A stretch of 64,000 nt of DNA from Escherichia phage DCP80. This document shows, in pieces, positions 42,916-61,540 of the stretch (positions are counted from its first letter, which is position 1; each line of letters opens with the position of its first letter). Both the position numbers and the translations under genes were made by a program. The stretch lies in the sequence record PQ671644.1; one strand, written 5' to 3'. The notes beneath the pieces were generated by a model that saw only the letters and a program-made list of their open reading frames with translations, did no database searches and was not told the origin of the DNA.

Positions 42916-42973
42916 TTCAATCTCCTCAGTAGTTGATAGGGATAATATACTGCATTATCCCTATGTTGTACAC

Positions 42974-43495: not shown

Positions 43496-43563
43496 TTTAT
43501 TCTCCAGTAGTTGATAGGGTCATTATAACATAAGAAAAAGGGGCTTACAGCCCCTTTGTTCAC

Positions 43564-43866: not shown

Positions 43867-43944
43867 ATGGTTTTCCTTTTAACAGTTGGTTTATTGTGTA
43901 ACTCAGTATGGAATCATTATGTCCTAAGACAAGGGGCTTGTACA

Positions 43945-44193
43945 CTATTTTAATTCATTAATTAAATGAAAATCTTGTGCATTGAAAGTAATGAAAAAAT
44001 AATCATTCCCTTCAACTGAAGCATGACAGGCAACACTACACCAGCGCCTTGCTCTGTTCAAGGAGCAATCCAAAATTTTAAAAGGCTTCAGACCAACAAT
44101 GGCAGCTGTTCTTTTATTATGCTCACAAATATCAGCATACTTTTGGAGAGCTTCTTCAGATTTGAACTGGTAATGCACATTAACTAATAACAT
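43945..44193 (-). CDS. hypothetical protein (copy 2)
   Basis: 82 aa, homolog of 27034-27282. Confidence 0.45.
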   Translation of the reverse strand: MLLVNVHYQFKSEEALQKYADICEHNKRTAAIVGLKPFKILDCSLNRARRWCSVACHASVEGNDYFFITFNAQDFHLINELK

Positions 44194-44281
44194 TTTATTA
44201 TCCTCATCAGTAGTTGATGGGATAATAGTACACCCTTTTTATGGTGATGTAAACCTCTAAATGAAAAAGACCCGAAGGTCT

Positions 44282-45721: not shown

Positions 45722-46050
45722 CTCTTTTTCATTTTAATTTTATCAATTTCATCTTGTATTTGCATTGTAACACACTTTTCTACATGCACAGCAAGCTCCG
45801 CTTTGCGGTCTTCAGAAGGGGTGCCGAAATCAACTGAAACTTTTCCAGATGGTTCAATTTTAATTCCGGTTACGTACACAATGTGACTGGACCCATCAGG
45901 GAGTGATAACAGAATTTCCTGTCGTACGGTTCCCATGGATTGCCGGATAATCTCCAAACTTTTTTCGTAGTAAGGTACAGAAGGAGCCTTAGCTCCCTCC
46001 GCATCTTTCTCGAAATTATCTAAATCAGATAAATCGATATCATTCATCAA
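45706..46050 (-). CDS. 40: gp40-like protein (copy 2)
   Basis: 114 aa, identical in translation to 28797-29141. Confidence 0.55.
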   Translation of the reverse strand: MMNDIDLSDLDNFEKDAEGAKAPSVPYYEKSLEIIRQSMGTVRQEILLSLPDGSSHIVYVTGIKIEPSGKVSVDFGTPSEDRKAELAVHVEKCVTMQIQDEIDKIKMKKRWWKW

Positions 46051-47030
46051 GGTCTTCCATCATATCTAAATCGTTTTCGATATCTGCCGCAGACGGTTTT
46101 GTCTTACCTTCAGGAGCAGTGTATTTTTCAACCTTGGAGGCAATAAGCGCATCAACTTCGGCATCAACAACAGCATTGCTATCGATTGCACCCAGCTGGT
46201 AATGGCGTTTGATTGCGTCACGGAAAGGTTCGTGCTTGAACAACGGGCCCCAGAATTCGGTGCAGTTAGTATCTTTTGCGCGCCATGATTTTTCTTCGCG
46301 GACCATTTCACCGGTCTCAACATCAAGATATTCACGGTTATACCAACCAACTTTCGGTTTCACCACAAATCCGATTTCCATTGCCATATCAAGCAGGCCA
46401 GAATACGGGTCAATACCGCCATCGAATTTTACATCAATGAAGAATTTACTTTTCTCTTTGACCATACGAGATTTTTCGGCGTTCAGAACAAATTGGAAAC
46501 CTTCAAGTTCTTTACCAGTTTCTTTAATCTGGCGTTTGCCGATAATGAATACGGTGTCTGCGGAATACATAACACCTGTACCACCGGTCATAACGGTTTT
46601 GCTATACATCTCAATCGTCTCGATTGTATGGTTAACCGCGACACAAGGAATATCCTTGATGCTAAAATATGGAGTAACAATACGGAACAGAGATTTCAGG
46701 GATTTGGCACGAGTCATATCGCCAACAACTTTTTCGTTCATCGCATCTTCTGTTTCTTTTTTCGACGCCATGTTACCGATTGAGTCAATAAAGATAATGA
46801 CTTTTTCACCACGCTCAATTGCTTCAAGCTGGTTAACCATATCAACTTTCAATTGTTCAACCGACTGGATTGGTGTGTGGATAACACGTTCCGGGTCAAC
46901 TTTCATTGCACGAAGATAGGCTTCTGTGATACCAAATTCTGAATCATAGAACAAACAGATTGCATCGGGGTATTTGTTCATATATGCAGAGACCATCGTT
47001 AAACCCATATTGGATTTAAAGTGTTTTGAC
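46040..47030 (-). CDS. uvsX: recombinase UvsX (copy 2), 5' end lost in gap
   Basis: C-terminal ~330 aa, near-identical to the 29131-30309 copy. Confidence 0.85.
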
Positions 47031-47080
47031 NNNNNNNNNNNNNNNNNNNNNNNNNNNNNNNNNNNNNNNNNNNNNNNNNN
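47031..47080. other. assembly gap (N-run)
   Basis: 50 Ns. Confidence 0.95.
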
Positions 47081-47136
47081 ACGCAACCTCATGTTCGTTT
47101 AATTGAACGTCATCATCAAAGAGACTTACAGCCATT
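47081..47136 (-). CDS. 62: gp62 clamp loader small subunit, first 18 codons only
   Basis: Minus strand MAVSLFDDDVQLNEHEVA, ATG overlapping gp44 stop. Confidence 0.5.
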
Positions 47137-48085
47137 TCATTTCCCCAGCCAGTTGAGCAAACAGATAAGTCAAGTGAACTTCGGTATTGGCCGCAATGCC
47201 ATGATACTGATTGTTCTCACCTACAATCTCATACATGCGGATGATACTTGCACCAGTCAGTTTGCCATACATTTCATCAGCCAGCTTTGCAATGAAGCTT
47301 GAATAATCATTTGCATGTTTAGGAGCCAGACCACGAAGAACTTTAAAGTTACGGTCTTTAAGGGCATCAATCACATCATCAATTGGCGTGCGATTGTTTG
47401 TCACGATACTCAGAATACCAGAATCGATAACACCCTTTGCAGAGTAACGGTCAAGCTCGTTAATTGTCTTACGCAGGTCCGGGAAGTTATGCTTAACCAG
47501 AGCAGCAACAACTTTCAGGTCTTCGATTTCAACGCCTTCGTTTTTACATACCGCAACTGCACGATGAATCATCTCTTTCATCATGGTAGTCTGGTCAGCC
47601 GGAGTTGCTTCACCGAACTTAATGACGCGACAACGAGACTGCAACGGAGTGATAATGCCATCGATATTGTTCGCGGTCATAATGATTGAACAGTTGCTCG
47701 AATAAGCTTCCATAAAGCTACGAAGATGCCGTTGTGATTCGGCCAGACCTGCACGGTCAAACTCATCGATAACGATTACCTTACGGCGACCTTCGATTGA
47801 TTTGGATGATGCAAAGCGAGTCAATTCATTACGCACAAAGTCAATTCGACAATCGGAGCCGTTAACAAACAGCATATCAGAATTCGTATCTGCGCACATA
47901 GCTTTTGCAACTGTTGTCTTACCAGTACCAGGGGAACTACTGACCAGAATCAAGTTAGGAATCAAACCTTTTTTAACAATCGCCTCTAATGTTTCTTTAT
48001 CATGAGCCGGGAGAATACACTCTGATAATGTACCTGGGCGGTATTTTTGTTCCCACATGAATTCTTTGTCATTAACCGTTAACAT
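47126..48085 (-). CDS. 44: clamp loader large subunit gp44 (copy 2)
   Basis: 319 aa, one substitution relative to 23361-24320. Confidence 0.9.
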   Translation of the reverse strand: MLTVNDKEFMWEQKYRPGTLSECILPAHDKETLEAIVKKGLIPNLILVSSSPGTGKTTVAKAMCADTNSDMLFVNGSDCRIDFVRNELTRFASSKSIEGRRKVIVIDEFDRAGLAESQRHLRSFMEAYSSNCSIIMTANNIDGIITPLQSRCRVIKFGEATPADQTTMMKEMIHRAVAVCKNEGVEIEDLKVVAALVKHNFPDLRKTINELDRYSAKGVIDSGILSIVTNNRTPIDDVIDALKDRNFKVLRGLAPKHANDYSSFIAKLADEMYGKLTGASIIRMYEIVGENNQYHGIAANTEVHLTYLFAQLAGEMKWL

Positions 48086-48141
48086 ATATTTTCCTCATAT
48101 TAGTTTCTACTTTGTACTCCATGGGGCCGAAGCCCCATTTA

Positions 48142-48837
48142 TTAATCTTGGAATTCGTGGCTAGAGCCTTGTTCCATTGCAATCACATAGCTTGCTTGTG
48201 TGCCTTCAAACTTCGTAGCAAATTTATCATCTTTCGCCCAAAGCATAACACGGTAATCAGCCGGAATCATTTTCATGTTCAGTTTGTTAATGATAAATTT
48301 AAACGCTGCATCACCTTCGTAATCGCCACACACCAGGGAATACAATGGACGCGCCAATTCTTTATCTTCGAGCTGGTTATAACCATGGATAACAATCTTA
48401 CCGTCTTTGTTGGTGATTGCAAAAGTATCCAGAGACAAACCACCAGCCACACGCAGAAGCTGCTGCAGGTCACTGCCTTTCAGGTCGAAGATAACCTTAG
48501 CTACCGGGAAAGGAATCTTCTTAGCAGGGAACACGATAGTGCTCGGGTCAGCCGCAGGCCAGTGAATCGTTGAACGTTGGTCTTTGATAATGATATTTGA
48601 TGCGTCTTCAGCCAGAGATACTTCAGCTTGGTCAGTTACCAGGCCCAGGATACTTAAGAAGCCGTTCAGGTCATAAATCGCAGCTTCAAAGTCAATTGTA
48701 TCATTGATTTCGGATTCGCCATATGACGCTCCAGTTACAGAACGAGTCAGGATGGTATTACCCGGCTTAAGCATAATGCCAGAGTAAATGGAGGTGAAAT
48801 TTTTCAATACCGCGATTGTGTCCTTTGAGAATTTCAT
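48142..48837 (-). CDS. 45: sliding clamp gp45 (copy 2)
   Basis: 231 aa, same translation as 22609-23304. Confidence 0.9.
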   Translation of the reverse strand: MKFSKDTIAVLKNFTSIYSGIMLKPGNTILTRSVTGASYGESEINDTIDFEAAIYDLNGFLSILGLVTDQAEVSLAEDASNIIIKDQRSTIHWPAADPSTIVFPAKKIPFPVAKVIFDLKGSDLQQLLRVAGGLSLDTFAITNKDGKIVIHGYNQLEDKELARPLYSLVCGDYEGDAAFKFIINKLNMKMIPADYRVMLWAKDDKFATKFEGTQASYVIAMEQGSSHEFQD

Positions 48838-48902
48838 GTAATTACCTTTTATTCAATATTCAGTTAATGAGAATTAATTATACAACGTTTGTTAACAAGC
48901 AG

Positions 48903-49334
48903 TTAAGCAACAACTACCATTTGTTTGCGGATAGCTTCCGGAAGAGATTCAATATACTCTGGAAGTTGCGCAGCAATAATAGAACCAGCTTGCACCAGAT
49001 GGTCGTCCGAGTTAACACAATAATCATCTTCAAGACGTTCGGAACCATCACGGTCGATAACCAGTTTAGCACCAGCGGCCAGTGAATCATTGTAGTGATT
49101 ACGCATCAGTTCAATCCACTTATCAGATACATCAGTATCAATCACACCGTACAGCATGAATTTAATTTCTTGTGGCAGAGACTGCAGACGGGTAGCAGAT
49201 GCTTCATCACATGCCAGGACCCAGGATTTGCGAACACGGTTTTGGTTATGTGGGTTAGCGTCGGTGCGGATGGTTTTAACTTGGATATCTTTAGCAGTTA
49301 CGTTGTTCATAATATTCTCTCTATTCATTATCAA
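48903..49334 (-). CDS. hypothetical protein, RpbA-like by position (copy 2)
   Basis: 143 aa, homolog of 22147-22578. Confidence 0.4.
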   Translation of the reverse strand: MIMNRENIMNNVTAKDIQVKTIRTDANPHNQNRVRKSWVLACDEASATRLQSLPQEIKFMLYGVIDTDVSDKWIELMRNHYNDSLAAGAKLVIDRDGSERLEDDYCVNSDDHLVQAGSIIAAQLPEYIESLPEAIRKQMVVVA

Positions 49335-49586
49335 TTAATCAAAGTATTCATATGCGAACCAGGCATTGTGTCTGTTCGCGATTATTTTAACATATTCTTC
49401 GCCGAAAGCGTTTTGTAAGTCACGTTCAGTAACAAGGTGTTCATCTTTCGAAAAGGTATTAACTAACACATACCGTTTAATTTCAGGGACAGCCAGTAAA
49501 TGCTGCCCGGTTAAGAAGTCAGCCATAATAGCCTCTATTATAACATCCTTGTTTAAAGCATTATTCCATAACAGTGAATCGACCAA
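49335..49586 (-). CDS. hypothetical protein (copy 2)
   Basis: 83 aa, homolog of 21895-22146. Confidence 0.4.
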   Translation of the reverse strand: MVDSLLWNNALNKDVIIEAIMADFLTGQHLLAVPEIKRYVLVNTFSKDEHLVTERDLQNAFGEEYVKIIANRHNAWFAYEYFD

Positions 49587-51243
49587 CTTTTTTCATCTGG
49601 AGATGTTGCCCGTATGCTTCCGGGTCATGGTCTCGGTGACTGATAATAAAGATGTTGGTGTCTTCCAATTTGTTCAGGATGGTAGCAATTGCTTTAACAC
49701 CCTCTACATCCGTAGCCGAGTCAAAAACTTCGTCCAGAATCAAGGTGTTAATATTAACACCAGATACTTTCGCAGCAATATCACGCCATGTAAACAGCAA
49801 TGCAATATCGATACGAGCTTTTTCACCCTGGCTAAATGATGCATAGCTGAAGTCTTCACGTCCACGAGATTTAATCGTTTCGTTGAACTCTTCATCTAAC
49901 GTAAAACTATAATCAGCTTCCATAACTTTAAGATAAGCGTTTATCTGCTTATTAAAGATAGGAATATATTTCTTAATAATCGCACCCTTGATACCAGAAT
50001 CTTTCAACATATCCGTTAGGATACCACGTTGATATTTTTCCATCACAAGGTCAGATTTCTGTTTGACTATTTTATCAAGCTGGTCTTGAAGCATTTTAAT
50101 GTCTGCAGCATGGTCAATGAATTCTGACTTGGCTTGCTCGATTAATGCTTTAACCTTTTTAGCTTTTTCGACAGTCTGGACTAAGGTTTGTTTCTTGGTT
50201 TGAATGTCTTGAGCTATTGTACGCTGGTTTTGTCTTGCCTTGGTATACGCATCAAATTGCTCCTGAACAGCGTTCTGGCGAGCTTTATGGTTATCAGCTG
50301 ATACATTACATTCTTCAATCTTTGACTCAATCCTGGCGACAATAGGGTCTCCTGGATGCAACTGACTGGCACAAGTCTGACAGCAACCACCTTTCTCGTA
50401 CAGACCAACAACCTTTCGGTAATCGTCTATCTTCGATTTAATCAGGAATGATTCCTGCTTTAACTTCGTGAGTTCATGCTCAGGGTCTTCTCCCAAGATT
50501 ATCTCGGTCAGTCTTGTCGTTGCTTCTTCGATAGTCGTCTTGATTCCACGTGCTTCTGTGGCAAGTTCATCATACATCGTTTGCAGCCGCAACAGATTAT
50601 CACCTGATAATTTTCTTTGGCGGTCTTCGTTGTCCTGATAGATTTTAATCTGTTGAACAATACCATCATGCTGCACATCCATCACCTGGATTTGACTATT
50701 GACTTCGCGGATAAGAGATTTGTTCAGCTTATCCATATCGGCCAGTACAGAAACCTCTAAAAGGTCTTCGACAAGTTTTCTTCTTGCAGGAGTGGATAGG
50801 CCCATAAAAGGGGTATATCCAGCTGTGCCGAGTACGACAATCTGTTTGAAGCTTGCATAGGACATTCCGATAAGCTGTTCAAATTCCGCTTGGAAGTCTT
50901 TACTGCTGGCAGATTCATCAAGACGTTTACCGCCACAAGAGATTTCAAAAACATTGGGTTTTTGCCCGCGTTTGATATAGTATTCTTTTCCATCATATTC
51001 CATCCACAATTCAACGAGCATATCTTTTTTATTGCTCGAGTTAATCAGCTGGCCTTTCTTTACATCACGGAAAGGCTTACCGAACATAGCAAAGGTAACC
51101 GCTTCAAGGAACGTAGATTTCCCCGCGCCGTTCTTACCGGTGACCAGAGTTTTCTGGACTTTATCCAGTTCAACAGTAATCGGTTTGGCGCCAACCGACA
51201 TAATATTTTTATAGATAACTTTCTTAAGCTTAAAAGTCTTCAT
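49561..51243 (-). CDS. 46: recombination endonuclease subunit gp46 (copy 2)
   Basis: Start MKTFKLKK at 51243; near-identical to 20238-21920. Confidence 0.9.
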   Translation of the reverse strand: MKTFKLKKVIYKNIMSVGAKPITVELDKVQKTLVTGKNGAGKSTFLEAVTFAMFGKPFRDVKKGQLINSSNKKDMLVELWMEYDGKEYYIKRGQKPNVFEISCGGKRLDESASSKDFQAEFEQLIGMSYASFKQIVVLGTAGYTPFMGLSTPARRKLVEDLLEVSVLADMDKLNKSLIREVNSQIQVMDVQHDGIVQQIKIYQDNEDRQRKLSGDNLLRLQTMYDELATEARGIKTTIEEATTRLTEIILGEDPEHELTKLKQESFLIKSKIDDYRKVVGLYEKGGCCQTCASQLHPGDPIVARIESKIEECNVSADNHKARQNAVQEQFDAYTKARQNQRTIAQDIQTKKQTLVQTVEKAKKVKALIEQAKSEFIDHAADIKMLQDQLDKIVKQKSDLVMEKYQRGILTDMLKDSGIKGAIIKKYIPIFNKQINAYLKVMEADYSFTLDEEFNETIKSRGREDFSYASFSQGEKARIDIALLFTWRDIAAKVSGVNINTLILDEVFDSATDVEGVKAIATILNKLEDTNIFIISHRDHDPEAYGQHLQMKKVGRFTVME

Positions 51244-51493
51244 CGTAATAAGCATCCTTGATACATGATTCAGCCATATGGATTAATGCCTCTGGGGTAT
51301 CATCTTCCATTACATTAAAGCTAAATTCTACGGCCCAATCGGTGACTACATAGACTTTGATAAGTTGACCAGTTTCCCGGTCAGTGATAGCTTCAAACCA
51401 ATACTTAATAGTATTCGGTTGATTATCGTCGTCAACCACATCACATTCGCGGATATGCTCAAGCCCCGCTTCATTAAAATCATAAAGTCTCAT
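51230..51493 (-). CDS. hypothetical protein (copy 2)
   Basis: 87 aa, homolog of 19779-20042. Confidence 0.45.
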   Translation of the reverse strand: MRLYDFNEAGLEHIRECDVVDDDNQPNTIKYWFEAITDRETGQLIKVYVVTDWAVEFSFNVMEDDTPEALIHMAESCIKDAYYDEDF

Positions 51494-52285
51494 GGTTGCA
51501 CCTCAAGATATAATTTGTTGGCCAATGCTTTGAGAGCTTTTGATTCTTTCTCATTGGCGTCAGGTAATGCATCGATATATTCTGCCATCATATCTGTTAA
51601 GCGTTTTATGTCTAACTCTTCATCAGAGTCTGACGTATCAACACTGTTATCAACCTTATTGACAACACGCAATTCGTGCACACGCTTTTCTAATTCAGAT
51701 TCGAACTTGGTCAGGTCTTTATCGACTTTTTCTACAATAACACGGACTGATAAGTCTTTGAAGTCGTCGTAGTTAATAGTTTCGTTTGGATAAAAAATCT
51801 TCCGATGCCAGGTGGTTTCATTCGGAATAAATTTCATCTCTTCGGTTTCTGTATCAAATTCCCAGAATCCGCGCGGGTCATTCTCATCACCTGCTGTTAA
51901 TGTCCATGGCGTTCCTATGTACTTAACGTTCGCAGCTTCTGAAATGGTATGGAAGTGCCCAGACCAAACTTGCTTGTACTTCTTAAGGAAATCAGGCTCA
52001 AGTCCGTGGGATTTCAATCCTTTATAGAAATAAAACCCGGTTAATTCCCAGTGACCGATGCAATATTCGGCACCAGAAGTTTTGATGTGTTGATGAATGT
52101 CAGTCGCGTTCTCGTCACACATCCATGGAATCATATCAATCTGACAACCGTCAAAATCAACAGTCGTTGGCTTATCGTAGATTTTAACATGGTCATACTT
52201 ATTCAGGAGTTCAGTGATAGCATTAGGATGAATCTTATTCTTCAGATTCATGTCATGGTTCCCGACTATCGTGTGCATAGTAATT
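51490..52285 (-). CDS. 47: recombination endonuclease subunit gp47 (copy 2), 5' end lost in gap
   Basis: From ...ITMHTIVGNHDMNL to stop, near-identical to 18763-19782. Confidence 0.85.
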
Positions 52286-52300
52286 NNNNNNNNNNNNNNN
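52286..52300. other. assembly gap (N-run)
   Basis: 15 Ns; joins gene 47 to an unrelated late-gene block. Confidence 0.95.
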
Positions 52301-52383
52301 TTCCCGGTCGCATTATCTTTAAAAATTCTATCAAGAAGTCCAAAAAGTAGGTCTGATAATGAAAATCCTACTTTTGGTTCCAT
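52301..52383 (-). CDS. t: holin t, first 27 codons only
   Basis: MEPKVGFSLSDLLFGLLDRIFKDNATG matches N-terminus of recalled T4 holin T; follows gene 38 as in T4. Confidence 0.7.
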
Positions 52384-52401
52384 ACTTTTCTCCTTTAAAG
52401 A

Positions 52402-52409
52402 TATTTATA
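52402..52409 (-). promoter_or_regulatory. late promoter TATAAATA upstream of holin t
   Basis: Minus strand TATAAATA about 20 nt upstream of the t ATG. Confidence 0.5.
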
Positions 52410-52419
52410 ATATGGGGTA

Positions 52420-53220
52420 TTATACTCTGCTTCCGTATATCGTACCAACGTTTTGCCAGTTAGGAGCATTACCGGCGACTGCTGCCCCAGCATTACCACC
52501 AGCACCAACTTTAAGCACTTTACCTCCATCATTCCAAGCGTTTTGGCCTTTAGCACCGACATTCCCACCAGCACCTGAATGCGCGTTACCATAATTATAA
52601 CCACCACCTGCTCCGGTAAGAGATGCCGCCCCACCGGAGTATCCTCCGCCACCAGCTGCACCAAATGGTCTACCGCCGCCAGCGCCTATATCTTGCCAGT
52701 TAGCACCTGAATGGGGTCTATACGCGATGCCACCACCACCGCCACCACCACCGGCTATAGCGCCATTATTACGGATACGAAGTTTAGTTCCGGCATTGTT
52801 TTGTATGGCTATTCCGCCGGCCTCACCATTACCATTGCCGTCGCTATGGGTCCAGCCTCCTCGGCCTCCTCGACCATAAACGGTAACACCGCTATTAATA
52901 TTAAGTTGTATATAAGCATTAGGTAAGTTGCTAGGGAATTCCAGACATGGGTTTCCGCGGTTGTTAGATACCAAGTCACCAGTAATTGTAATAACAACAG
53001 GCGCACTGCCTTGTGCTCTCATCCAGTTTATAAGGGTGTTTTTATCATAGTTATGATTAGCCCCTATAGATAAGTAAATTTCTTTTGATTGGTTAGCCAT
53101 CGAACCCATCCAACCCGGGACAGCTACACGAACATCTCGCATTGCTGCATCCATCCAACGTTGGCCAGTTTCGTCAACTGCAGATTGTCCGACCCAACCA
53201 GGTAATCCTACAATTGCCAT
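52420..53220 (-). CDS. 38: tail fiber adhesin gp38 (T2-type, glycine-rich motifs)
   Basis: 266 aa; conserved N-terminus ...GQRWMDAAM...INWMRAQGSAPVVITITGDLVS...NAYIQLNI..GVTVYGRGG then poly-Gly motifs (AGGGGGGGG, GAGGGRPFGAAGGGG) and C-terminal TIYGSRV, as in recalled T2-family gp38. Confidence 0.8.
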   Translation of the reverse strand: MAIVGLPGWVGQSAVDETGQRWMDAAMRDVRVAVPGWMGSMANQSKEIYLSIGANHNYDKNTLINWMRAQGSAPVVITITGDLVSNNRGNPCLEFPSNLPNAYIQLNINSGVTVYGRGGRGGWTHSDGNGNGEAGGIAIQNNAGTKLRIRNNGAIAGGGGGGGGIAYRPHSGANWQDIGAGGGRPFGAAGGGGYSGGAASLTGAGGGYNYGNAHSGAGGNVGAKGQNAWNDGGKVLKVGAGGNAGAAVAGNAPNWQNVGTIYGSRV

Positions 53221-53228
53221 AATAAATC

Positions 53229-53246
53229 CTTAGGGCCCGAAGGCCC
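53229..53246 (-). promoter_or_regulatory. C(UUCG)G tetraloop hairpin between genes 37 and 38
   Basis: Minus strand AGGGCC-TTCG-GGCCCT. Confidence 0.4.
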
Positions 53247-53251
53247 TTTTC

Positions 53252-56200
53252 TTAATTTAATTTAGCTTCAAGTTCTCTAACTTTAGCCGACAGGGTTTTA
53301 ACTGCTTCAATTAACAGAGCAACTTGTGCCTGAGTCGAAACTGTCAGAACCATATTTTCCTGCGAATCTAAAGACTCATGCACCGCTTCAGGTAATACTT
53401 CTTTAAGATTCTGAGCAATAACACCTGCTTCAGTTTGAACCGCTTCACCACCGATATATTCAGCTTTATCATAGATTAAACCGTCGAGCTGTTCAACCTT
53501 TTCAAGAGCATTTTCAATAGGCCTGAAGTTTGATTTCAAACGAATGTCAGAACGAATATAAACGTTTGGAGCATTTATATTTTTATATGAGTACAAATCA
53601 CCGTTTTGGAAACGGAAAGTCTGTACGCCATTCGCATATATGTCTAATAATCCATCGCCATTTTGCTTAATACCGGTATCACTATCGCCAATTGTTATAC
53701 TACTTCCACCGAGTGAGTTAGTTGTATTAACACCAAAGGCACTTGTTTGTGGCATCTGTACTTTACCCGGGCAATCTAAAATGCCATCCATTGTAAATCG
53801 CCATCTTGCTTGTTGGCCGTTAGCGTTATCTCCGCGAATACGAATAATACCTTCTCGCCAACCAGCTGTGGTACCAGAGCCGACCCATCCAAATTCAAAG
53901 GTTTGACGATATCCAGAGGAACCATAGTTGCTGTATGCACCTACAATAGGATAATAACTACCTGAATTAGATAAATCACCATGGTCTGCCATAAAGGTGA
54001 TTTTAGATTTCATTGTATCTGAGGTATCTCCCCAACCAGAGGCACCGCGCCAACCTGCAACCACACGAGACGAGATATTGCCTAAACTAGTATTACCACT
54101 GGTGACATTAAGGCCGCCCGCCACGTTCAGACCACCACCAGTAATATTCAGACCACTGCCCATGCCTACACGACCATCAGCCATGTTGATAGAGAAAGGT
54201 CTTAAGCCATTCCACAACCCGTCAGTTGCATTCGGGTTTTCTTCCGTGTTTTTATCCGTAACTAAAATATGAAAATTTTCACCGTCGTTTCTAATCAAAG
54301 CGGCATTAGAACCTATATCATTACCGCTGGATTTGATACGCATACCTTTTTGGTTATTGGTAACGTATTCACCACGTGTAACAATATCCGATTCGCCGGC
54401 AGCAAACATTCCGTCAATGTTGTTCAGCATTCTTACAGATTTACCTACAACATGACCTTCAGGTAATGTTTCTACCAAAGGCTGGACACCGCTATTAATA
54501 CCCACTACGGTTACTTTACTATTGCTACTGCATGTATATTCTACCGCCAAAGAATTAGAATACCCACCTAAGTAAACGTAAATATCATAGGTATCTTCGC
54601 TTGTATTAACAGAAGCAATCTGAGAAATAGCTTCAGAAGTTCTATTCCACAGCGTAGCATTAAGGCCTTTAGGGTTATTATTGCCGGTTCTAAGGACTAT
54701 TTCGGCTATTGAAGCCTGACCATAACTTTTAAAATTAAATCCAGAACCACCTGATATTTTAAAGGATGCTGTACCCGTCGCTTGTGGAATTTCTACAGTA
54801 GCAAATTTATACCAACCTGTAGTAGCGCCGCCAGCCCAACCGCCTGTGTTAACTTTACGGTCTAACGTTGTGTTCAGGTTTTTAAAGTTATCTAATGCAG
54901 TGCTGCCTGTAATATTACCGTCAGGACCAATACGAACATCGGAACCAATTTTAAGTGCCTTGGTTATATCAACAGTATCAGAGTTTAATGCAATACCATG
55001 GGAGTATGTATAGTTATGTAAACGAACAACGTTGCCGCCGTCGCCAATACCGAGATACCATTTTGTAACATCTGCTTTACGTCCTTGGATAAAGTTGGAT
55101 GATGCCTGGGATGAAGCATTTACCACAATGGCATCAGAATCCATATTAACACGCAGTCTACAGTCGGTCTGGACAAATTTACTTACGTTGTCTACTGTAA
55201 AAAGTGGACCATACCCGGCACTTTTATTCCCCATTATAACCGTGCCGGTGGCTAAATTGATAGATAGCGGACGAAGGTCACTTATTCCACCATTTTCTCC
55301 AGCGTTCTGAAGAGTAGGAATAAGATGGAATGAAGCAGAAGAACCTGTTTCTGAACGACGGAAAATCATACCATATTCGGCATTCCAAATTCTTAATGCA
55401 TCAGCGGTACCGCCTATTTTAACTTGACCGTTAAAAGTGGCGCCACCATTTATATTCAATCCGTTTGCTGAAGTGATACTACCTTCCGATGAAATACTAC
55501 CAGCAGTAGTCAATCCACCATTTACACGGAATTGAATAGAACCTACGGTTTGGGAACTTGTGGGAGCAACGCGTTGTGAATAAAAATGCCAACCCTGTCC
55601 ATCGCCTAATTCAAATACAGTTTCTCTGCTTTTATTAGTGTCATCCTCAAATGCGTTACCCCATACTTTCATGGTCACATAGCTTTTGTTCTGACCCGGG
55701 CGGGTGCCTGCGTTCCAAACAATCGTTTTTGTGCCATTGATAGTGGAAGAAGCGCCGAACTTTATACCTTTATTGTTGTTGTTAGTATTAAAAAATAATT
55801 CGTTATCTAATTTAACTGGTTGGGTCGAGGAAACTGTGCCATCGGCTCTAAGATTCAGTTCATTAACCCCGGTTTTAATATTCAAAATACCTGGTTCAAT
55901 AATCATGCCTTCTGCCATAGAAATGGCTACACGACCTGTACCACGGAAATAATGATAAAGTTTACCATTAGAATTATAACCTAAATGGGTTTGGCCATCC
56001 CCAGAGTTATTACCGTCTATTTCGGTTCTAATAGAAACCATAGAAGAGTTCTGGCCAGGCAGAAGCCAAGTAAGACCTTGGTCATTACTACGGCCAAATA
56101 TGGTTTTACTAGTCCCACGGAAGCCGTCGGAAGTAATAGATGCAACGGAATAACCTCCACCAACTAAATCATAAACACCTTGCTTAATATATTTCAGACC

Positions 56201-57004
56201 GGTTACAGTGTCACCGAGAACAAGATACTTATCGCCCATTACACCGACGTTACCATAATCACTAGACGGGAAACCCGTAGTGAATGTACCTAATGCAAGG
56301 CTATTACGGCCTGCCATTCGTCCGTCATTACGAATGCCATATTGTTTAGATGATGGAGTATTACCTGTCCACCATGACATTTCATCAGCTTGACCTGTCT
56401 GGGCGGTGCAAAGCTCATGCCACATAGTGCCACCAGACTTGGCGCGAACTTTACGAAGATAGTTTACACCATTCGTTTCGCCTGTGCCTGGGTATACATA
56501 ATTAACTAATGAATCTGTATCATATACACCAAAGGCTTTGCCACCGTGGATAACTGTATCGACTGCAATGCGTTTAGTTACTAATGAATCTGATGCTAAA
56601 ATACGGTTGGCCTGAAATTCACCACCATTTATAGAACGGAAATAGAATTCACTATTAGCAGTACCTTCTGTCCCCTGTTTAATCCTAATGCGTAATTCAC
56701 CAGCATTTGTAGTTTGAGGACGTGCATATATAACACCGCGTTCACTGCCATCAGCATTTTCAAACCATAAATGGGCATTTGATGTTGTATCGTTTGAAGC
56801 TCTTGAATAAAACGAGCCTTGCAACGCTCTAAAAGTTTGAGCCGAAATACTAGTGCCTGCTGTAATCGACCCGCTTGTAGAAAAGTTTCCAAAATTGTTT
56901 AATGGGCCGTTAATGCGTAAAGTTCCATTAATAGTTACATCCCCGTCAACCTGCCCACCTTTAGCAAAGCCCAAATCAATAATCTGTCCCTGGTCTGACT
57001 TAGT
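53252..57004 (-). CDS. 37: long tail fiber distal subunit gp37, N-terminus lost in gap, with C-terminal intramolecular-chaperone-like domain
   Basis: About 1250 aa of continuous frame; long beta-rich fiber repeats; C-terminus [17 protein letters not shown]...[11 protein letters not shown]...[19 protein letters not shown] resembles self-cleaving peptidase S74 chaperone modules; synteny 37-38-t. Confidence 0.8.
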
Positions 57005-57040
57005 NNNNNNNNNNNNNNNNNNNNNNNNNNNNNNNNNNNN
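57005..57040. other. assembly gap (N-run)
   Basis: 36 Ns. Confidence 0.95.
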
Positions 57041-57056
57041 GCGGAAAGGGGGTGTT

Positions 57057-57224
57057 ATGAAAACATTCAAAGATTTTATCAACGAAGATATGGTTGCAGG
57101 TGATGCAGGTGGAAACCCAACTAATATCACAACAGGTACCACTTCCGGGGCAGTTGTCAATAAAGGCCCTGAACAAATCCCATCAAAAAAGCGTAAGAAC
57201 AAAGACGATAAACCTACAGTATAA
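57057..57224 (+). CDS. small basic protein with N-terminal capsid-targeting-like sequence (candidate internal protein)
   Basis: 55 aa; AAGGGGG RBS; MKTFKDFINE resembles the T4 internal-protein CTS MKTYQEFIAE with an I-x-E cleavage motif; C-terminus KKRKNKDDKPTV. Confidence 0.45.
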   Translation: MKTFKDFINEDMVAGDAGGNPTNITTGTTSGAVVNKGPEQIPSKKRKNKDDKPTV

Positions 57225-57226
57225 TG

Positions 57227-57243
57227 GTCCTTCGGGGCCATTG
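57227..57243 (+). promoter_or_regulatory. UUCG tetraloop hairpin upstream of gene 61
   Basis: TGGTCC-TTCG-GGGCCA (one G-U pair), no U-run, 12 nt before the gene 61 RBS. Confidence 0.35.
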
Positions 57244-57256
57244 AAATGAGGAAACT

Positions 57257-58285
57257 ATGTCATATATTGATAAAGAATTTGCAGTCAGAGCTTTATCGTA
57301 TCAACCACGTTATAGAGAAGTCACCGGGAGCACATTTAAAGCAAACTGCAGATGTAAAGTTTGTGGCGACTCCCAGAAAGATTCACATAAAGCCAGATTC
57401 TGGGCGTATACTAATCCGGCTGATGGCGCGGTTTACGTGAAATGTTTTAACTGTGACTACTCCACGCATATAAGCAAATACATAAAAGAGTTTGAGCCGG
57501 ATTTGCACCGGGAATATATGGTTGAGAAGTACAAGGAGAACGCCTTCGGGCGACAACGCACTGAAGTTGTCGAAACTCCGAAAGAACCAGAAAAAACTCC
57601 GGTTATCGAACAGCTTGCTTTTTGTGAAAGACTCGATACTTTACCAGAAGCACATCCGATAGTTAAGTATGTAAAAAGTCGATGTATTCCAAGCAATGTT
57701 TGGAACCGGTTATGGTTTACAAACCAATGGCCCGCATTAGTTAACTCCGTCAATCCTGGGACGTATAAGAATGAAACGAATGAACCACGCTTGGTTATTC
57801 CTATCTTCAACGGCAAAAAAGAAATCGAATCTTTCCAAGGACGAGCTCTTCGCAAAGATGCACCACAAAAATATATCACAATCAAAGCTCACCCAGAAGC
57901 TTCCAAAGTCTATGGCGTAGACAAGATTGATGAGCGTAAACGCGTATGGGTAATGGAAGGTCCAATTGATAGTTTGTTTATCCCTAACAGCATTGCGATA
58001 ACTGGTGGCACATTGTCATTGGAAGCAGTTCCTTATGCTGAAACCAGAGTATGGGTAATGGACAACGAGCCAAGACATCCGGATACGATTAAACGTATGA
58101 AGAAGCTCGTTGAAGCTGGCGAAGCTGTTATGTTCTGGGACAATGCACCATGGCATACGAAAGACATAAATGAGATGGTTAAATCAGAAGGGGCAACCCC
58201 TGAACAAATCGAATCATATATGGCCGATAACGTTGCTCAAGGATTGATGGCGAGAATGCGACTTTCGAAGTACGCAAAAGTTTAG
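57257..58285 (+). CDS. 61: DNA primase gp61
   Basis: 342 aa; zinc ribbon C..C...C..C, ...IKEFEPDL.REY..., ...EPRLVIPI.N......SFQGRAL.KDAPQKYITI.A.PEA.K.YGV......V.V.EGPIDSLFI.N.IAITGG.L.LE.VP......VWV.DNEPRHPDTIKRM.KLV.AGE.VMFWD..PW..KD.N.M...EGATPEQI..YM..N.AQGLMA.MRLSKYAK match recalled T4 gp61. Confidence 0.9.
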   Translation: MSYIDKEFAVRALSYQPRYREVTGSTFKANCRCKVCGDSQKDSHKARFWAYTNPADGAVYVKCFNCDYSTHISKYIKEFEPDLHREYMVEKYKENAFGRQRTEVVETPKEPEKTPVIEQLAFCERLDTLPEAHPIVKYVKSRCIPSNVWNRLWFTNQWPALVNSVNPGTYKNETNEPRLVIPIFNGKKEIESFQGRALRKDAPQKYITIKAHPEASKVYGVDKIDERKRVWVMEGPIDSLFIPNSIAITGGTLSLEAVPYAETRVWVMDNEPRHPDTIKRMKKLVEAGEAVMFWDNAPWHTKDINEMVKSEGATPEQIESYMADNVAQGLMARMRLSKYAKV

Positions 58286-58393
58286 GAAGGGATTCCGGTA
58301 AAGTAACCGATGATGGAATGAATATGTTCTATTGTGACCTGGGGTAAGTGCACCCCTTGTGTTGCAGCGATAGGCACAACCAGTAAGTTCCAC

Positions 58394-58591
58394 CTATATA
58401 AGGCCGATTAATGCTAGTGAAACATCTACAACTGATTCGAGCGCGACGACTGGCAATATAACACCATGTGCCAATGCAATAGGGGCAACAATGAAATTCC
58501 AGAGTAGAACAAAACAGAGTATCGAAAGGACCAGAATCGTTCGCTTACGACTGCCTTTGATGGCTTGAATTAGACTAGATAGTTTGAGCAT
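58394..58591 (-). CDS. antisense small hydrophobic protein
   Basis: 65-aa ORF on the opposite strand to all neighbours, strong AGGAGG RBS 7 nt upstream, two predicted hydrophobic segments. Confidence 0.35.
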   Translation of the reverse strand: MLKLSSLIQAIKGSRKRTILVLSILCFVLLWNFIVAPIALAHGVILPVVALESVVDVSLALIGLI

Positions 58592-58675
58592 ACATCCTCC
58601 TTTCTTGTATTTATGCTTTAAACCAATATGATATAATTAACATACAAACAATATGAATTGATAAGGAAAAATATA

Positions 58676-59194
58676 ATGGCTCATTTTAACGAGTGTTCTC
58701 AACTGATTGCTGGTGTTGATAAAGCGCAAGATGCGTATAATGATGTCCTAAAAGGCAATGATGACCCTCTGCAGATTATGCTTGATATGCAGAAATCTTT
58801 GCAGGTTCGTCTGGCTACAGAAAAACCAGAATATAACGCACATCCAGATGAATTGGCAACCGCAGGCGATGTTGTTGCATGGCTTCGTAACCAGAAAGAT
58901 TATGTCGACGACGAATTCCGTGAACTTCTGACTTCGCTCGGTGGCATGTCTAATGGTGAGAAAGCCGCATCCAGTTGCTGGAAGCCGTGGAAAGCGCAAC
59001 ATGCTGAATATCGTAATCGTCGTATTGATGAACTGTCTCCTGAAGACCAGCTCGAAATTAAATTCGAAATGATTGATATTCTGCACTTCGTTCTGAATAT
59101 GTTTCAAGGTCTGGGTCTTTCTGCTGAAGAAATCTTTAAACTGTATTACTTGAAAAATGCCGAGAACTTTGCTCGCCAAGACCGAGGTTATTAA
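58676..59194 (+). CDS. 56: dCTP pyrophosphatase gp56
   Basis: MAHFNEC..LI.GVDKAQ..Y.D.L......DPLQ.MLDMQ..LQ.RLA......HPD.L.TAGDVV.W.R.QKD..DDEFRELLTSLG.MS.GEK.AS..WK.WKA........RIDE.SPEDQLEIKFE..DI.HFVLNMF.GLG..AEEIFKLYYLKN.ENFARQDRGY matches recalled T4 gp56; track ORF starts at upstream TTG. Confidence 0.85.
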   Translation: MAHFNECSQLIAGVDKAQDAYNDVLKGNDDPLQIMLDMQKSLQVRLATEKPEYNAHPDELATAGDVVAWLRNQKDYVDDEFRELLTSLGGMSNGEKAASSCWKPWKAQHAEYRNRRIDELSPEDQLEIKFEMIDILHFVLNMFQGLGLSAEEIFKLYYLKNAENFARQDRGY

Positions 59195-59475
59195 TGGCTC
59201 GTTTAAATAAACGTCAACTTAAGAAAGCTCGTAAGAAGCATATTAATGCTATAATTGAAAACGCTAATGTTGAAATCTTTGTAGAACTCTTAGCCAATCA
59301 ACTAAAAAATTTATCTAAACAAGAAATTGATATGAATACTGAAAATGCTAAAAATGTAATCGAAACTCATAATGTTTTTGCTCAAGCTACAGCCGAATAC
59401 ATTGCCAATCCTACTGCTGAAAATCTAGCTAAAATGACTGAAGCCAATAAAGCAGTCCAAGCCGCCAAATTGTAA
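59194..59475 (+). CDS. hypothetical protein
   Basis: 93-aa ORF, ATGA overlap with gene 56 stop. Confidence 0.45.
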   Translation: MARLNKRQLKKARKKHINAIIENANVEIFVELLANQLKNLSKQEIDMNTENAKNVIETHNVFAQATAEYIANPTAENLAKMTEANKAVQAAKL

Positions 59476-59476
59476 G

Positions 59477-59484
59477 TTATAAAT
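59477..59484 (+). promoter_or_regulatory. late promoter TATAAATA upstream of soc
   Basis: Exact TATAAATA about 33 nt upstream of the soc ATG. Confidence 0.55.
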
Positions 59485-59516
59485 ACACCTGTAATTAAAC
59501 AACAAAGGAGTTTATT

Positions 59517-59750
59517 ATGGGTGGTTTCGTTAATATCAAAACCTTCACGCATCCAGCTGGTGAAGGTAAAGAAGTTAAAGGCGTTGAAGTATCAGTTCCG
59601 TTTGAAATCTATTCGAACGAGCACCGTATTGCTGATGCGCACTATCAGACTTTCCCTTCGGCCGTTGCAGCATATACTACTGTAGTGACTGATGCAGCCG
59701 ATTGGCGAACTAAGAACGCGGCAATGTTTACGCCTACCCCAGTAGTTTAA
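59517..59750 (+). CDS. soc: small outer capsid protein Soc
   Basis: 77 aa; GFVNIKTF......GKE..VPFE.YSNEHRIADAHYQTFPS..AAY.TV matches recalled T4 Soc. Confidence 0.75.
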   Translation: MGGFVNIKTFTHPAGEGKEVKGVEVSVPFEIYSNEHRIADAHYQTFPSAVAAYTTVVTDAADWRTKNAAMFTPTPVV

Positions 59751-59755
59751 TTATA

Positions 59756-59780
59756 GGGAACCTTCGGGTTCCCTTTTTTG
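59756..59780 (+). terminator. rho-independent terminator with UUCG tetraloop after soc
   Basis: GGGAACC-TTCG-GGTTCCC followed by TTTTTTGCTTTT. Confidence 0.65.
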
Positions 59781-59827
59781 CTTTTAATAGAGATGGTATA
59801 ATTATTTCAACTACAGAGGAGAATACT

Positions 59828-60025
59828 ATGTTAAACCGTTGGATTAAACCAAATAAAACTTTAGATGAAGTTATTGCCCATGATGTGCATTTTAAGTATG
59901 GTCTGGGTGTGTTTGACGAGGTTGTCGTGCACTCGTTCATGATGCACGATGATGATTCTTTAGAATTCAATATTGAAATCCGTTATGATGATGGTCAAGT
60001 TGAATTTAAACGAGGTTTCCTATGA
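59828..60025 (+). CDS. hypothetical protein
   Basis: 65-aa ORF with GAGGAG RBS. Confidence 0.45.
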   Translation: MLNRWIKPNKTLDEVIAHDVHFKYGLGVFDEVVVHSFMMHDDDSLEFNIEIRYDDGQVEFKRGFL

Positions 60026-60381
60026 TTAGTTGGCTCAAGAATTTATTCAAGACTAAACCTGGTGAAGGGGTGGTTCCTGTTAGCCTGCCAGATGTTAAAC
60101 TAAGAGAATATGTTTACATGGGCGATGGTATGATGGAAGAAGTTCGTCGCCGCCCAGAAAAAGCCGGTAATGTCGGACCAGGCGCATTGCCATTGAATTC
60201 GAAAAAGTTAAAAGAGCATCTGGATTCAAGACGTTCTACAAGCCATGTCGATACTACACCGCATATTGATATGACTCCGATTGTGGTTACTGCGGCCGCT
60301 GTCAGTTCGTGGACTGGTGATTCGTCTTATTCCTCCTATGATTCAGGAAGCTGCGATTCATCTTCCAGCTCGTGTGATTAA
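60022..60381 (+). CDS. hypothetical protein with Ser/Cys-rich C-terminal tail
   Basis: 119-aa ORF; tail DSSYSSYDSGSCDSSSSSCD. Confidence 0.45.
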   Translation: MISWLKNLFKTKPGEGVVPVSLPDVKLREYVYMGDGMMEEVRRRPEKAGNVGPGALPLNSKKLKEHLDSRRSTSHVDTTPHIDMTPIVVTAAAVSSWTGDSSYSSYDSGSCDSSSSSCD

Positions 60382-60576
60382 ATGAGAATTACAAGTTGGC
60401 TTAAAGATTGGTTGGTTACCCCGGGGATTGATGATTCCTGGGTGGCCAGAGCCGAGGAAGAAATGCAGCGCGAAGCTGAAGAATGGGCCGCCGCAAGCGT
60501 CAAAGATATGCAGGAAAAGAAGACCGAACGAGCTGTGCTTAAACTGATGCGTGATATCTACGGAGATAAATCATGA
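60382..60576 (+). CDS. hypothetical protein
   Basis: 64-aa ORF. Confidence 0.4.
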
Positions 60577-60722
60577 CACAAGAAGAAGCTGAACGTCAGG
60601 CAAAAGAAGCACTGGATTTGCTTTTGAAAATTGGCAGTAAAATGATGGAAGAAAATGAAAAGTACATCAAGGAAAATAAAGTTCCTGATGGTCCATTAGT
60701 TGGTAAGAGGAAAACATTATGA
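60573..60722 (+). CDS. small hypothetical protein
   Basis: 49-aa ORF translated by eye, ATGA overlaps on both sides. Confidence 0.3.
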
Positions 60723-61207
60723 AAGTATATGAATTAGAATTCTATGTCCGTGATTCTGCTGGGCAAACACGACCTTACGATGCAACAGCCTGTCTTATCT
60801 TTGCATATAATGGCATGGATTCGGTTACTGAGTTGGAAACAAAATTAATGAACCTGACGATGCCAGAAAATGTCATGATGAAGGTATTTCATAACAAAAA
60901 CGTTAATGTGGCTGAAGGGTGTCCGTTTACTGTTTCCGAAGCTCTACACATTAAAGGCTATCGTCACCCGGACCCTTATGCAGAAGGTACTGCGGATATC
61001 TTCTATAAAGATACCGATAGAATTTCAGAAGAACGCCTTAAAGGTCGCACATATCTGATTTCCACTACCGACGACCTTGCTGAAGTTGAACGTCAGATTT
61101 GGAAGCACTTTGATATCGGTCTGCGCTTTACTTTAACAGAAGAAGCTATTCAAGATACTAAAATGCGTGCTCGTATGTATGGTTACGGTCCGATTGGTGG
61201 TTACTAA
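60719..61207 (+). CDS. hypothetical protein
   Basis: 162-aa ORF. Confidence 0.5.
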
Positions 61208-61383
61208 TGGATTTATTTGAACTTTTTGAAGAGCCTAAAGCTCCCACAGAAGCCCGTGTGGACCTAGTTGACGAACTTGATGCGATTATACAGAAGCACG
61301 GTTTTAGTCTCCCATTGGAAGTTCTGCGCGACCTGGCCTCATATTACGACGACCCACCTCCATGGGCACCATGGAAACAGTAG
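61207..61383 (+). CDS. small hypothetical protein
   Basis: 58-aa [16 protein letters not shown]..., overlaps previous stop. Confidence 0.35.
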   Translation: MDLFELFEEPKAPTEARVDLVDELDAIIQKHGFSLPLEVLRDLASYYDDPPPWAPWKQ

Positions 61384-61504
61384 TTTACTTACTCCCCTCC
61401 TAATGACATAATGACCTTTCTTACAACAGAGAGGTCATTATGAACATCATCAAATCTGATACCGAACCCAACCAGTTAAAATTTAGTGAAATGGAGATAG
61501 CTTC

Positions 61505-61540
61505 ANNNNNNNNNNNNNNNNNNNNNNNNNNNNNNNNNNN
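61505..61540. other. assembly gap (N-run)
   Basis: 36 Ns. Confidence 0.95.

Follow-up and report, generated by a model that had tools for sequence, protein, structure and literature searches.

Whether the genes at positions 52420-57004 of the Escherichia phage DCP80 record PQ671644.1 encode a receptor-binding fiber tip, and which receptor this tip would recognize, is the question raised by this locus. The window analyzed here is the whole stretch of 64,000 nucleotides, and an initial annotation had described in it a gp37 with a chaperone-like C-terminus next to a T2-type glycine-rich adhesin, gp38. We are highly confident that this module represents the distal tip of a T2-type long tail fiber from a T-even coliphage (Straboviridae, Tevenvirinae). 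The domain identities, motif conservation, predicted fold, gene order and mosaic structure are observed directly, and the cleavage, the capping stoichiometry and the receptor are what we infer.

In such a tip, gp37 would trimerize to form the distal half-fiber, with its last 99 residues serving as a Peptidase_S74-type intramolecular chaperone that helps the trimer to fold. Via a Ser/Lys pair this chaperone would sever itself from the fiber at the Arg-Ser bond of NVYIR^SDIRLK, which would expose the docking face for gp38. The gp37 trimer would be capped by a single gp38, which attaches via an N-terminal domain bearing Trp residues; from the polyglycine-II "sandwich" of gp38 the hypervariable loops would protrude and bind an outer-membrane protein.

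Both genes were found on the minus strand at the positions initially assigned to them. They are located on a single contig (52301-57004, here the fiber piece) among the N-joined contigs of the window, which carries on the minus strand the 5'-truncated g37, g38 and the first 27 codons of the holin gene t:

52286-52300, no strand: N spacer, a contig joint and not sequence; flanks t and gp47, which are not neighbors in SP18, P896 and T2
52301-52383, minus strand: holin gene t, interrupted after its first 27 codons by the end of the contig; MEPKVGFSLSDLLFGLLDRIFKDNATG aligns to the holins of IME341 and T2
52402-52409, minus strand: box TATAAATA, which resembles a T4 late promoter and lies 18 nt ahead of the start codon of t
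52420-53220, minus strand: g38, T2-type receptor-binding adhesin, 266 aa plus stop (PF21721, PF05268, phrog_2056, PDB, AF2)
53233-53246, minus strand: hairpin GGGCC-UUCG-GGCCC in the spacer of 31 nt between g37 and g38; a Shine-Dalgarno-like AAGGA and the ATG of g38 come next
53252-57004, minus strand: g37, long tail fiber distal subunit, 5'-truncated (phrog_1699, 4.1e-277; Pfam gp37_trimer, Gp34_trimer and Peptidase_S74)
57005-57040, no strand: N spacer, a contig joint and not sequence; the primase/dCTPase/soc region beyond it is the next piece

The window contains ten N runs, every one of which ends at a multiple of 20, and the flanks joined by them are non-neighbors in related genomes, for example t beside gp47. 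These N runs are contig joints, therefore open reading frames and gene neighborhoods crossing them are artifacts. This applies to two long frames of the mechanical list, 53252..57241 and 51490..52383, which read through N spacers, as well as to the apparently unusual order gp47-g38-g37-primase, which was rejected as a product of the joining. That the window consists of concatenated contigs, and that g37 is truncated at a contig end (position 57004, followed by 36 N), had been missed by the initial annotation.

The hairpin in the g37-g38 spacer folds with -12.7 kcal/mol, which at a z-score of -1.0 against shuffled sequences is not unusual, and it appeared terminator-like on the plus strand in the terminator scan; over the whole fiber piece, promoter and terminator scans gave counts at or below the shuffle expectation. 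The sequence TATAAATA occurs five times in the window against 4.6 expected, and since this is not above chance, it is position alone that speaks for the box upstream of t. An Rfam scan of the whole window found nothing.

The adhesin g38 runs from 53220 to 52420 (266 codons plus stop), and its identity is carried by several matches. PF21721 (Gp38_N) covers aa 1-42 with 5.8e-16, PF05268 (GP38) covers aa 47-266 with 3.6e-67 and 226.8 bits against a cut-off of 25, and phrog_2056 matches the full length with 1.3e-98. Among known structures, the sequence matches 6f45_D (6e-42) and 9v85_A (1.7e-40). An AF2 model (pLDDT 87.6, pTM 0.81) was matched to S16 6f45_D with an E-value of 4.2e-22 and TM-scores of 0.78/0.84, and to PP01 9v85 with TM-scores of 0.70/0.83 (9v85_C, E 2.2e-21), so that a polyglycine-II sandwich plus beta-helix fold is predicted. 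PF21721 and an alignment of 40 gp38 homologues (A1) delimit the following parts:

53095-53220, minus strand: N-terminal attachment domain, aa 1-42, T2/Dhakavirus subtype (PF21721; W9, W22 and W37)
52423-52878, minus strand: specificity domain, aa 115-266, with glycine-rich motifs and four hypervariable segments (HVS)
52822-52854, minus strand: HVS1, aa 123-133
52729-52752, minus strand: run of eight glycines (G8)
52687-52728, minus strand: HVS2, aa 165-178
52576-52641, minus strand: HVS3, aa 194-215
52507-52551, minus strand: HVS4, aa 224-238

Here, 50 columns are invariant, mostly Gly, and the variation is confined to the four segments, which lie between five glycine-rich motifs. Glycine makes up 33.6% of aa 115-266 and 9.6% of aa 1-114; the G8 run occupies aa 157-164, and three shorter ones lie at 181-183, 190-193 and 205-207. 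Of the tryptophans, W9 shows no variation, W22 reaches at least 90% conservation and W37 occurs here as well. The conserved N-terminal attachment domain and the polyglycine motifs between variable segments, both noted earlier, are thus recovered, and profile matches, crystal-structure match, predicted fold and architecture agree on an adhesin of the T2 type. This label holds for the scaffold of the protein; it does not hold for the loops, which are of the OmpA "type 1" kind and not T2-like, a point likewise overlooked by the initial annotation.

The comparison with relatives makes this mosaic visible. Within aa 1-114, gp38 shares 107 of 114 residues with IME341, 97 with T2 and 54 with RB32, and the glycine framework likewise is closer to T2 (73/90) than to RB32 (64/90). 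The order is reversed in the hypervariable segments, of which 53 of 62 residues are identical to RB32, 50 to FL08 and 51 to AV119 (81-85%), in contrast to 18 of 62 (29%) for T2, a FadL-dependent phage from which all four segments differ. Thus, the tip of T2 and of the IME341/IME08/JS10-type Dhakaviruses resembles the one described here in the N-terminal half of gp38 (85-94% identical) and in the glycine framework. The "type 1" adhesins of RB32/RB33, FL08 and AV119, and also of SH7, wV7 and fFiEco06, resemble it in the loops, whereas their N-terminal half is 38-47% identical and belongs to another attachment and beta-helix subtype, and their framework between the loops is unlike the T2-like one found here. 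Within 450 nt of g38, at least eight such switches of type occur, located at the borders of glycine-rich motifs and leaving the frame intact. This mosaic of a T2/Dhakavirus N-terminal half and framework with OmpA-type loops is the one new detail of the locus. The closest adhesin of a named phage is 64% identical and a look-up found no record of the exact sequence; the best matches of the specificity domain in the phage database are all of the "type 1" OmpA kind, 75-78% identical overall. Since the loop-coding DNA is just 63-78% identical to that of the "type 1" phages, the loop set is no recent transfer from them.

Because the hypervariable segments resemble those of the OmpA-dependent phages RB32, FL08 and AV119, we infer OmpA as the most likely receptor of gp38, perhaps with a contribution of LPS. 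The "type 1" OmpA-binding Gp38 variants are a class of Lutz et al. (2025), and the grouping with FL08 and AV119 was made by residue identity (50-51 of 62). That variable segments determine specificity, as the initial annotation had assumed, has been established experimentally for relatives (PMC3157838, PMC12892980, PMC12032242). RB32, an LPS-sensitive phage, depends on OmpA, and a hypervariable block of 400 bp carries this specificity over to RB5 (PMC3157838); FL08 and AV119 are OmpA-dependent as well (PMC12032242). Furthermore, the residues R165, R181 and R262 of FL08 are kept as R168, R184 and R265.

It is nevertheless possible, though less probable than binding of OmpA, that the architecture is as described and the receptor is a different one (OmpC, Tsx, OmpF or FadL), or that two receptors are used. 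Small changes in the loops switch receptors among gp38 adhesins, two or three substitutions being sufficient from T2 to SV76 and from T6 to PST (PMC3157838), and compared with RB32, FL08 and AV119, 9-12 of the 62 hypervariable residues are changed here, on a framework that is T2-like and not RB32/FL08-like. For further carriers of the loop type, among them wV7, O157 typing phage 7, SH7 and the Salmonella phages SG1 and Jbel, the literature consulted gave no receptor assignment. Against this stand two independent experimental sets that link the loop type to OmpA, one of RB32 with its chimeras and one of FL08 and AV119, and the near identity of HVS2 (12-13/14) and HVS4 (13/15) to the OmpA-type adhesins. 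The loops are moreover unlike those of T2 (FadL) and of the OmpC binders S16 and PP01. [quoted passage not shown] The PP01 gp38 (PDB 9V85) shares the fold and the glycine lattice and displays five loops, A-E, of unrelated sequence, and a PP01/AR1-type OmpC specificity was rejected on this ground. OmpA is therefore retained as the favored receptor.

As to the fiber that gp38 would cap, the gene g37 runs from 57004 to 53252 with 1250 codons plus stop and lacks about 39 N-terminal codons, as the match to phrog_1699 begins at profile position 40 and gp37 of IME341 has 1289 aa. Compared with the Dhakaviruses IME341 and IME08, the fiber piece is 90-92% identical on DNA level over 71% of its length. 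The gene is a fine-scale mosaic, in which segments resemble IME341, fDHCT2, SP18 and T2; identity over the last 200 aa or so amounts to 90-98% with IME341 and to about 85% with T2, and over approximately the last 250 aa it is 85-98% with the T2 and Dhakavirus tips, whereas the shaft is a different patchwork from that of IME341, with aa 12-185 and 386-525 being just 45-70% identical.

The C-terminal strings quoted in the initial annotation are present in gp37, and the profile search it had proposed for an S74 module gave a match above threshold:

53255-53551, minus strand: intramolecular chaperone (Peptidase_S74), predicted released fragment of 99 aa (PF13884; alignment to 6f45_A and 7dc3)

PF13884 matches aa 1152-1209 of the partial protein over the full profile (1-58) with 1e-15 and 58.2 bits, against a Pfam gathering threshold of 22 bits. 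The domain starts 99 aa before the stop codon, and upstream of it Pfam places fiber trimerization domains. At this start lies a catalytic-type Ser with a Lys five residues downstream (S-D-x-R-x-K), and the predicted cut falls between Arg (53552-53554) and Ser (53549-53551), so that the fragment would begin with Ser1152 of the partial protein, approximately Ser1191 at full length. The C-terminus aligns to the S16 gp37 distal chain 6f45_A with an E-value of 1.5e-10, and SDIRLK (aa 1152-1157) is placed on SDRRIK of S16 and on ADLRAK of the self-cleaving domain of MYRF (7dc3). The latter alignment extends across the cleavage motif, with the Lys in register and an Ala at the position of the Ser, presumably due to a Ser-to-Ala construct. 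Endosialidase tailspikes, the T5 L-shaped fiber protein pb1 and MYRF carry chaperones of the same Pfam family, although their passenger domains differ from gp37; as in gp37, the S74 domain of these proteins, endoNF and pb1 among them, is C-terminal and follows a trimeric fiber. The motif NVYIR^SDIRLKSNF is identical in gp37 of T2 and IME341, and the T2 and IME341/IME08/JS10-type tips likewise have a 99-aa chaperone. Pfam together with the S16 and T2 alignments settles, at the level of sequence, the assignment of this domain to S74.

For T2 and T6, cleavage of gp37 has been published (PMC3157838). The S16 chaperone of 113 aa cleaves itself at S^SDRRIKK and thereby exposes the docking surface for gp38 (PMC7917993). 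As in the S16 gp37-gp38 tip (PDB 6F45), the S74 chaperone is C-terminal here and a cut before SDxRxK is predicted for it, although the distal region is weakly similar and the chaperone is 99 instead of 113 aa long. Self-cleavage of gp37 is predicted by analogy to these systems. Sequence alone cannot prove catalysis, and the S74-like domain might be kept in the mature fiber as a non-cleaving structural or chaperone remnant, with gp38 binding elsewhere. This is very unlikely, since Ser and Lys are present in the canonical SDxRxK spacing and T2, for which processing was shown, has exactly this site, which also aligns to the mapped site of S16. For the last 159 aa, AF2 run on the single sequence gave a model (pLDDT 53.3, pTM 0.36) with helices after the site that is too unreliable to compare. 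A gp37 C-terminus of the T2 subtype is found here together with a gp38 N-terminus of the T2 subtype, and a lock-and-key match between these termini has been described (PMC3157838).

The fiber piece shares the order g37-g38-t with IME341, T2, RB32, fDHCT2 and PSD2001. Its neighboring contigs are Gaprivervirus-like, the 5' end of t is 100% identical on DNA level to the Gapriverviruses SP18 and P896, and so is a 111-nt stretch including the TATAAATA box. The sample behind the window is mixed and contains at least two strains, which share about 96% identity; therefore the backbone carrying the module is assigned only tentatively. This mixture, and the fact that the contig ends lie in conserved sequence on both sides, would also allow g38 to be no real gene but a chimera misassembled from two phages that occur together. 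We regard this as highly improbable, because an assembly error would hardly account for the many switches at glycine-rich borders within an intact frame. Moreover, a 999-bp Logan contig from another run, SRR31021174, carries the same mosaic gene (P0001) at 95.9% DNA and 98% protein identity, with almost no gene context, and in P0005, gp38 parts of these kinds are naturally combined into a further mosaic. That gp38 is a T4-type assembly chaperone outside the virion, as might be thought since the nearest backbone relatives SP18 and P896 carry an unrelated T4-type tip, in which gp38 has 181 aa and the tip of gp37 is His-rich, can practically be dismissed: gp38 has no similarity to the 181-aa protein and matches adhesin profiles and crystal structures, gp37 ends in an S74 domain and not in a His-rich needle, and the tests of sequence and fold refute a T4-type pair (gp38 chaperone of about 180 aa, gp37 ending in HxH repeats).

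A T2-type module in a Gaprivervirus is no novelty and was rejected as such, since both T4-type and T2-type tips are already represented in the genus, the latter by PSD2001, whose PP01-like loops are absent here. The proposal that all four loops of the OmpA "type 1" kind are a natural graft on the scaffold and glycine framework of the T2/Dhakavirus type, paired with a gp37 tip of the T2 subtype within a Gaprivervirus backbone, we consider evenly poised.

The biology of this tip module is already known and its architecture is ordinary and well studied. No new mechanism is added, since both gp37 chaperones that cleave themselves and gp38 adhesins rich in glycine have been known from the 1980s onward, and crystal structures exist. 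The practical value is modest: the receptor, probably OmpA, can be predicted from the sequence of the module. The locus represents a further example of the reshuffling of T-even fiber genes at the borders of glycine-rich motifs, which bears on choosing and engineering phages for therapy. If the loop graft is true and OmpA is bound via the grafted loops, nature itself would have demonstrated that complete loop sets can be moved from one gp38 scaffold to another across genera, which is the design principle that host-range engineering relies on.

The fibre module lies on one contig of the assembly, where g37 and g38 are placed as the initial annotation had claimed and where the strings it quoted from the C-terminus of gp37 were found:

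52301-57004, fibre contig, 4704 bp, a single contig
57004-53252, minus strand, g37, 1250 codons from the contig end to the stop at 53252
31 nt, spacer between g37 and g38
53220-52420, minus strand, g38, 266 codons
36 nt, spacer between g38 and t
5' end of the holin gene t, minus strand, first 27 codons

The order g37-g38-t is shared with IME341, T2, RB32, fDHCT2 and PSD2001. Here, gp37 lacks about 39 N-terminal residues: the PHROG profile match starts at position 40, and the gp37 of IME341 has 1289 aa. Between g37 and g38 a hairpin with a UUCG tetraloop is present (GGGCC-UUCG-GGCCC, 53233-53246, minus strand), whose stability is ordinary in comparison to shuffled sequences. Read on the plus strand, the stem leads into a T-rich tail and obtains a terminator-like score in a terminator scan; in this direction it might be a candidate stop for antisense early transcription.

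The adhesin gp38 had been proposed to be glycine-rich and of the T2 type, and this is supported. Pfam matches cover Gp38_N (aa 1-42, 5.8e-16) and GP38 (aa 47-266, 3.6e-67), and glycine accounts for 33.6% of aa 115-266 compared with 9.6% of aa 1-114, including a run of eight glycines at aa 157-164. Using phmmer against the PDB, gp38 of S16 (6f45_D, 6e-42) and the receptor-binding domain of PP01 gp38 (9v85, 1.7e-40) were detected. An AlphaFold model calculated with a 40-sequence alignment as input (pLDDT 87.6, pTM 0.81) superimposes on 6f45_D (E 4e-22, TM 0.78/0.84) as well as on 9v85 (TM 0.70/0.83), and the structure search with this model gave no meaningful match beyond these two. The alignment of the 40 sequences displays clustered invariant glycines and four variable blocks, which is the layout of five motifs and four segments described by Trojet et al. 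(PMC3157838) and is equivalent to loops A-E in the PP01 structure (PMC12892980).

For gp37, an S74-like C-terminus had been suggested, and the HMM search identified Peptidase_S74 at aa 1152-1209 of the partial protein (1e-15, 58.2 bits, with a Pfam gathering score of 22), preceded by Pfam fibre trimerisation domains. The last ~150 residues align to the distal fragment of S16 gp37 (PDB 6F45 chain A, 1.5e-10) and also to human MYRF in its self-cleaving domain (7dc3), placing SDIRLK of gp37 in register with SDRRIK (S16) and ADLRAK (MYRF). The final 250 residues are 90–98% identical to Dhakavirus IME341 and ~85% identical to T2, and the motif NVYIR/SDIRLKSNF is identical in both phages. For T2 and T6, cleavage of gp37 has been published (PMC3157838). 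According to PMC7917993, citing Dunne et al. 2018, the last 113 residues of S16 gp37 form an intramolecular chaperone, whose autocleavage at DLNVS^SDRRIKK uncovers the docking surface for gp38. From this likeness we infer that gp37 would be cleaved as well, with a predicted cut between Arg (53552-53554) and Ser1152 (53549-53551) releasing a predicted fragment of 99 residues. AlphaFold, run on this region as a single sequence, gave a model (pLDDT 53) that was too poor for use.

Within gp38, the N-terminal half and the loops have different relatives.

Identical residues between gp38 of DCP80 and gp38 of named phages
aa 1-114: IME341 107/114, T2 97/114, RB32 54/114, FL08 48/114, AV119 43/114
Four hypervariable segments: T2 18/62, RB32 53/62, FL08 50/62, AV119 51/62
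Framework between and after these segments: T2 73/90, RB32 64/90, FL08 63/90, AV119 63/90

On sequence level, gp38 is thus a mosaic of a T2/Dhakavirus scaffold and OmpA-type loops. The loop-coding windows of g38 share only 63–78% DNA identity with RB32, and the loop set therefore represents an old lineage rather than a recent gain from this phage. Chimeric misassembly of g38 is disfavored by an independent 999-bp contig from SRR31021174, which encodes a 98% relative of gp38 and is 95.9% identical on DNA level over g38 and its flanks. Among 5.8 billion proteins, the 98% cluster from the Logan assemblies is the sole close match, followed by a protein with 72% identity, and the nearest full-length adhesin among named phages reaches 64%. 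Further natural mosaics are present in the databases: one homologue on a 25-kb ENA contig (P0005) combines a Dhakavirus-type attachment domain (aa 1-47) with an RB32-type remainder, and two from Logan (P0002 and P0003) have the N-terminal half in common with gp38 of DCP80 but carry different loop sets. The exchange points recur at domain borders and at the borders of the glycine motifs.

The variable segments between the glycine motifs had been named as likely determinants of specificity. This role is borne out by RB32, whose 400-bp hypervariable block carried the RB32 specificity along when moved into RB5; RB32 requires OmpA, and the LPS composition matters as well (PMC3157838). FL08 and AV119, both with 'type 1' adhesins, are OmpA-dependent as seen by plating on deletion mutants (PMC12032242), and their loop type is the same as in gp38 of DCP80. 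Furthermore, R165, R181 and R262 of FL08, named in an interaction analysis (PMC12032242), are kept as R168, R184 and R265. In contrast, the loops of PP01 and S16 (both OmpC) and T2 (FadL) are unrelated. Taken together, these likenesses suggest with moderate confidence that OmpA is the receptor. Among T2-type gp38 adhesins, two or three loop substitutions can suffice for a receptor switch (PMC3157838).

The shaft of gp37 is a patchwork too, as expected for T-even fibre genes. Compared with IME341, aa 186-385 and 525-1250 are 90–100% identical, whereas aa 12-185 and 386-525 reach 45–70%, and in successive 150-nt windows of g37 the best match alternates among IME341, fDHCT2, SP18 and T2.

Ten runs of N, 10–54 bases long and each ending at a multiple of 20, interrupt the 64-kb window:

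8994-9040
17791-17800
24743-24760
30887-30940
36511-36520
41760-41800
47031-47080
52286-52300
57005-57040
61506-61540

Their flanks are non-adjacent in related genomes; at 52286-52300, codons 1-27 of t face the interior of gp47, and at 57005-57040 the g37 reading frame faces the primase/dCTPase/soc region. These runs are contig joints and not masked sequence, and therefore reading frames and gene neighborhoods spanning them are artefacts. Two entries of a mechanical ORF list, 53252..57241 and 51490..52383, were rejected because they read through the spacers. On the next contig, directly upstream of the primase gene, lies a small ORF (57058-57227, plus strand; MKTFKDFINEDMVAGDAGGNPTNITTGTTSGAVVNKGPEQIPSKKRKNKDDKPTV), whose N-terminus we take to resemble the sequence that targets internal head proteins of T4 to the capsid.

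When the eleven pieces were compared with each other, three contig pairs with 94–99% identity emerged, each pair being two versions of one genome region (rIIB-ndd, gp44-gp47 and one third region):

1-8993 and 9041-17790
17801-24742 and 47081-52285
24761-30886 and 41801-47030

The window is therefore a string of contigs, joined end to end, from an assembly with at least two closely related T-even phages of the Gaprivervirus-like kind, and this accounts for the contig breaks at the conserved borders of variable genes. The gene gp34, for the proximal subunit of the long tail fibre, is the second fibre gene that was broken in the assembly: the stretch 33286-36510, 98.2% identical to SP18 (1170-4395 of the matched SP18 stretch), stops ~1 kb into it.

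The neighboring contigs 47081-52285 and 57041-61505 are 97–98% identical to the Gapriverviruses SP18, P896, phage 212 and PSD2001. The fibre contig itself matches best Dhakavirus IME341/IME08 and the unclassified fDHCT2, and its only Gaprivervirus-identical part is the t end, where 111 nt (52301-52411) are 100% identical to SP18 and P896. Given this identity, the most likely backbone of the tip module is a Gaprivervirus-like one. In SP18 and P896 the tip is of the alternative T4 type, with a His-rich gp37 needle and a 181-aa gp38 chaperone, and in PSD2001 it is of the T2 type, with a gp38 of 261 aa and a gp37 ending in S74, so both architectures are already known in the genus.

The observation made in the initial annotation is confirmed and its interpretation holds as well. 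The mechanism of the tip is textbook for T2-type phages, with crystal structures behind it. What sets this sequence apart is a mix of known parts that had not been named before, a T2/Dhakavirus scaffold with OmpA-type loops, together with a truncated g37.
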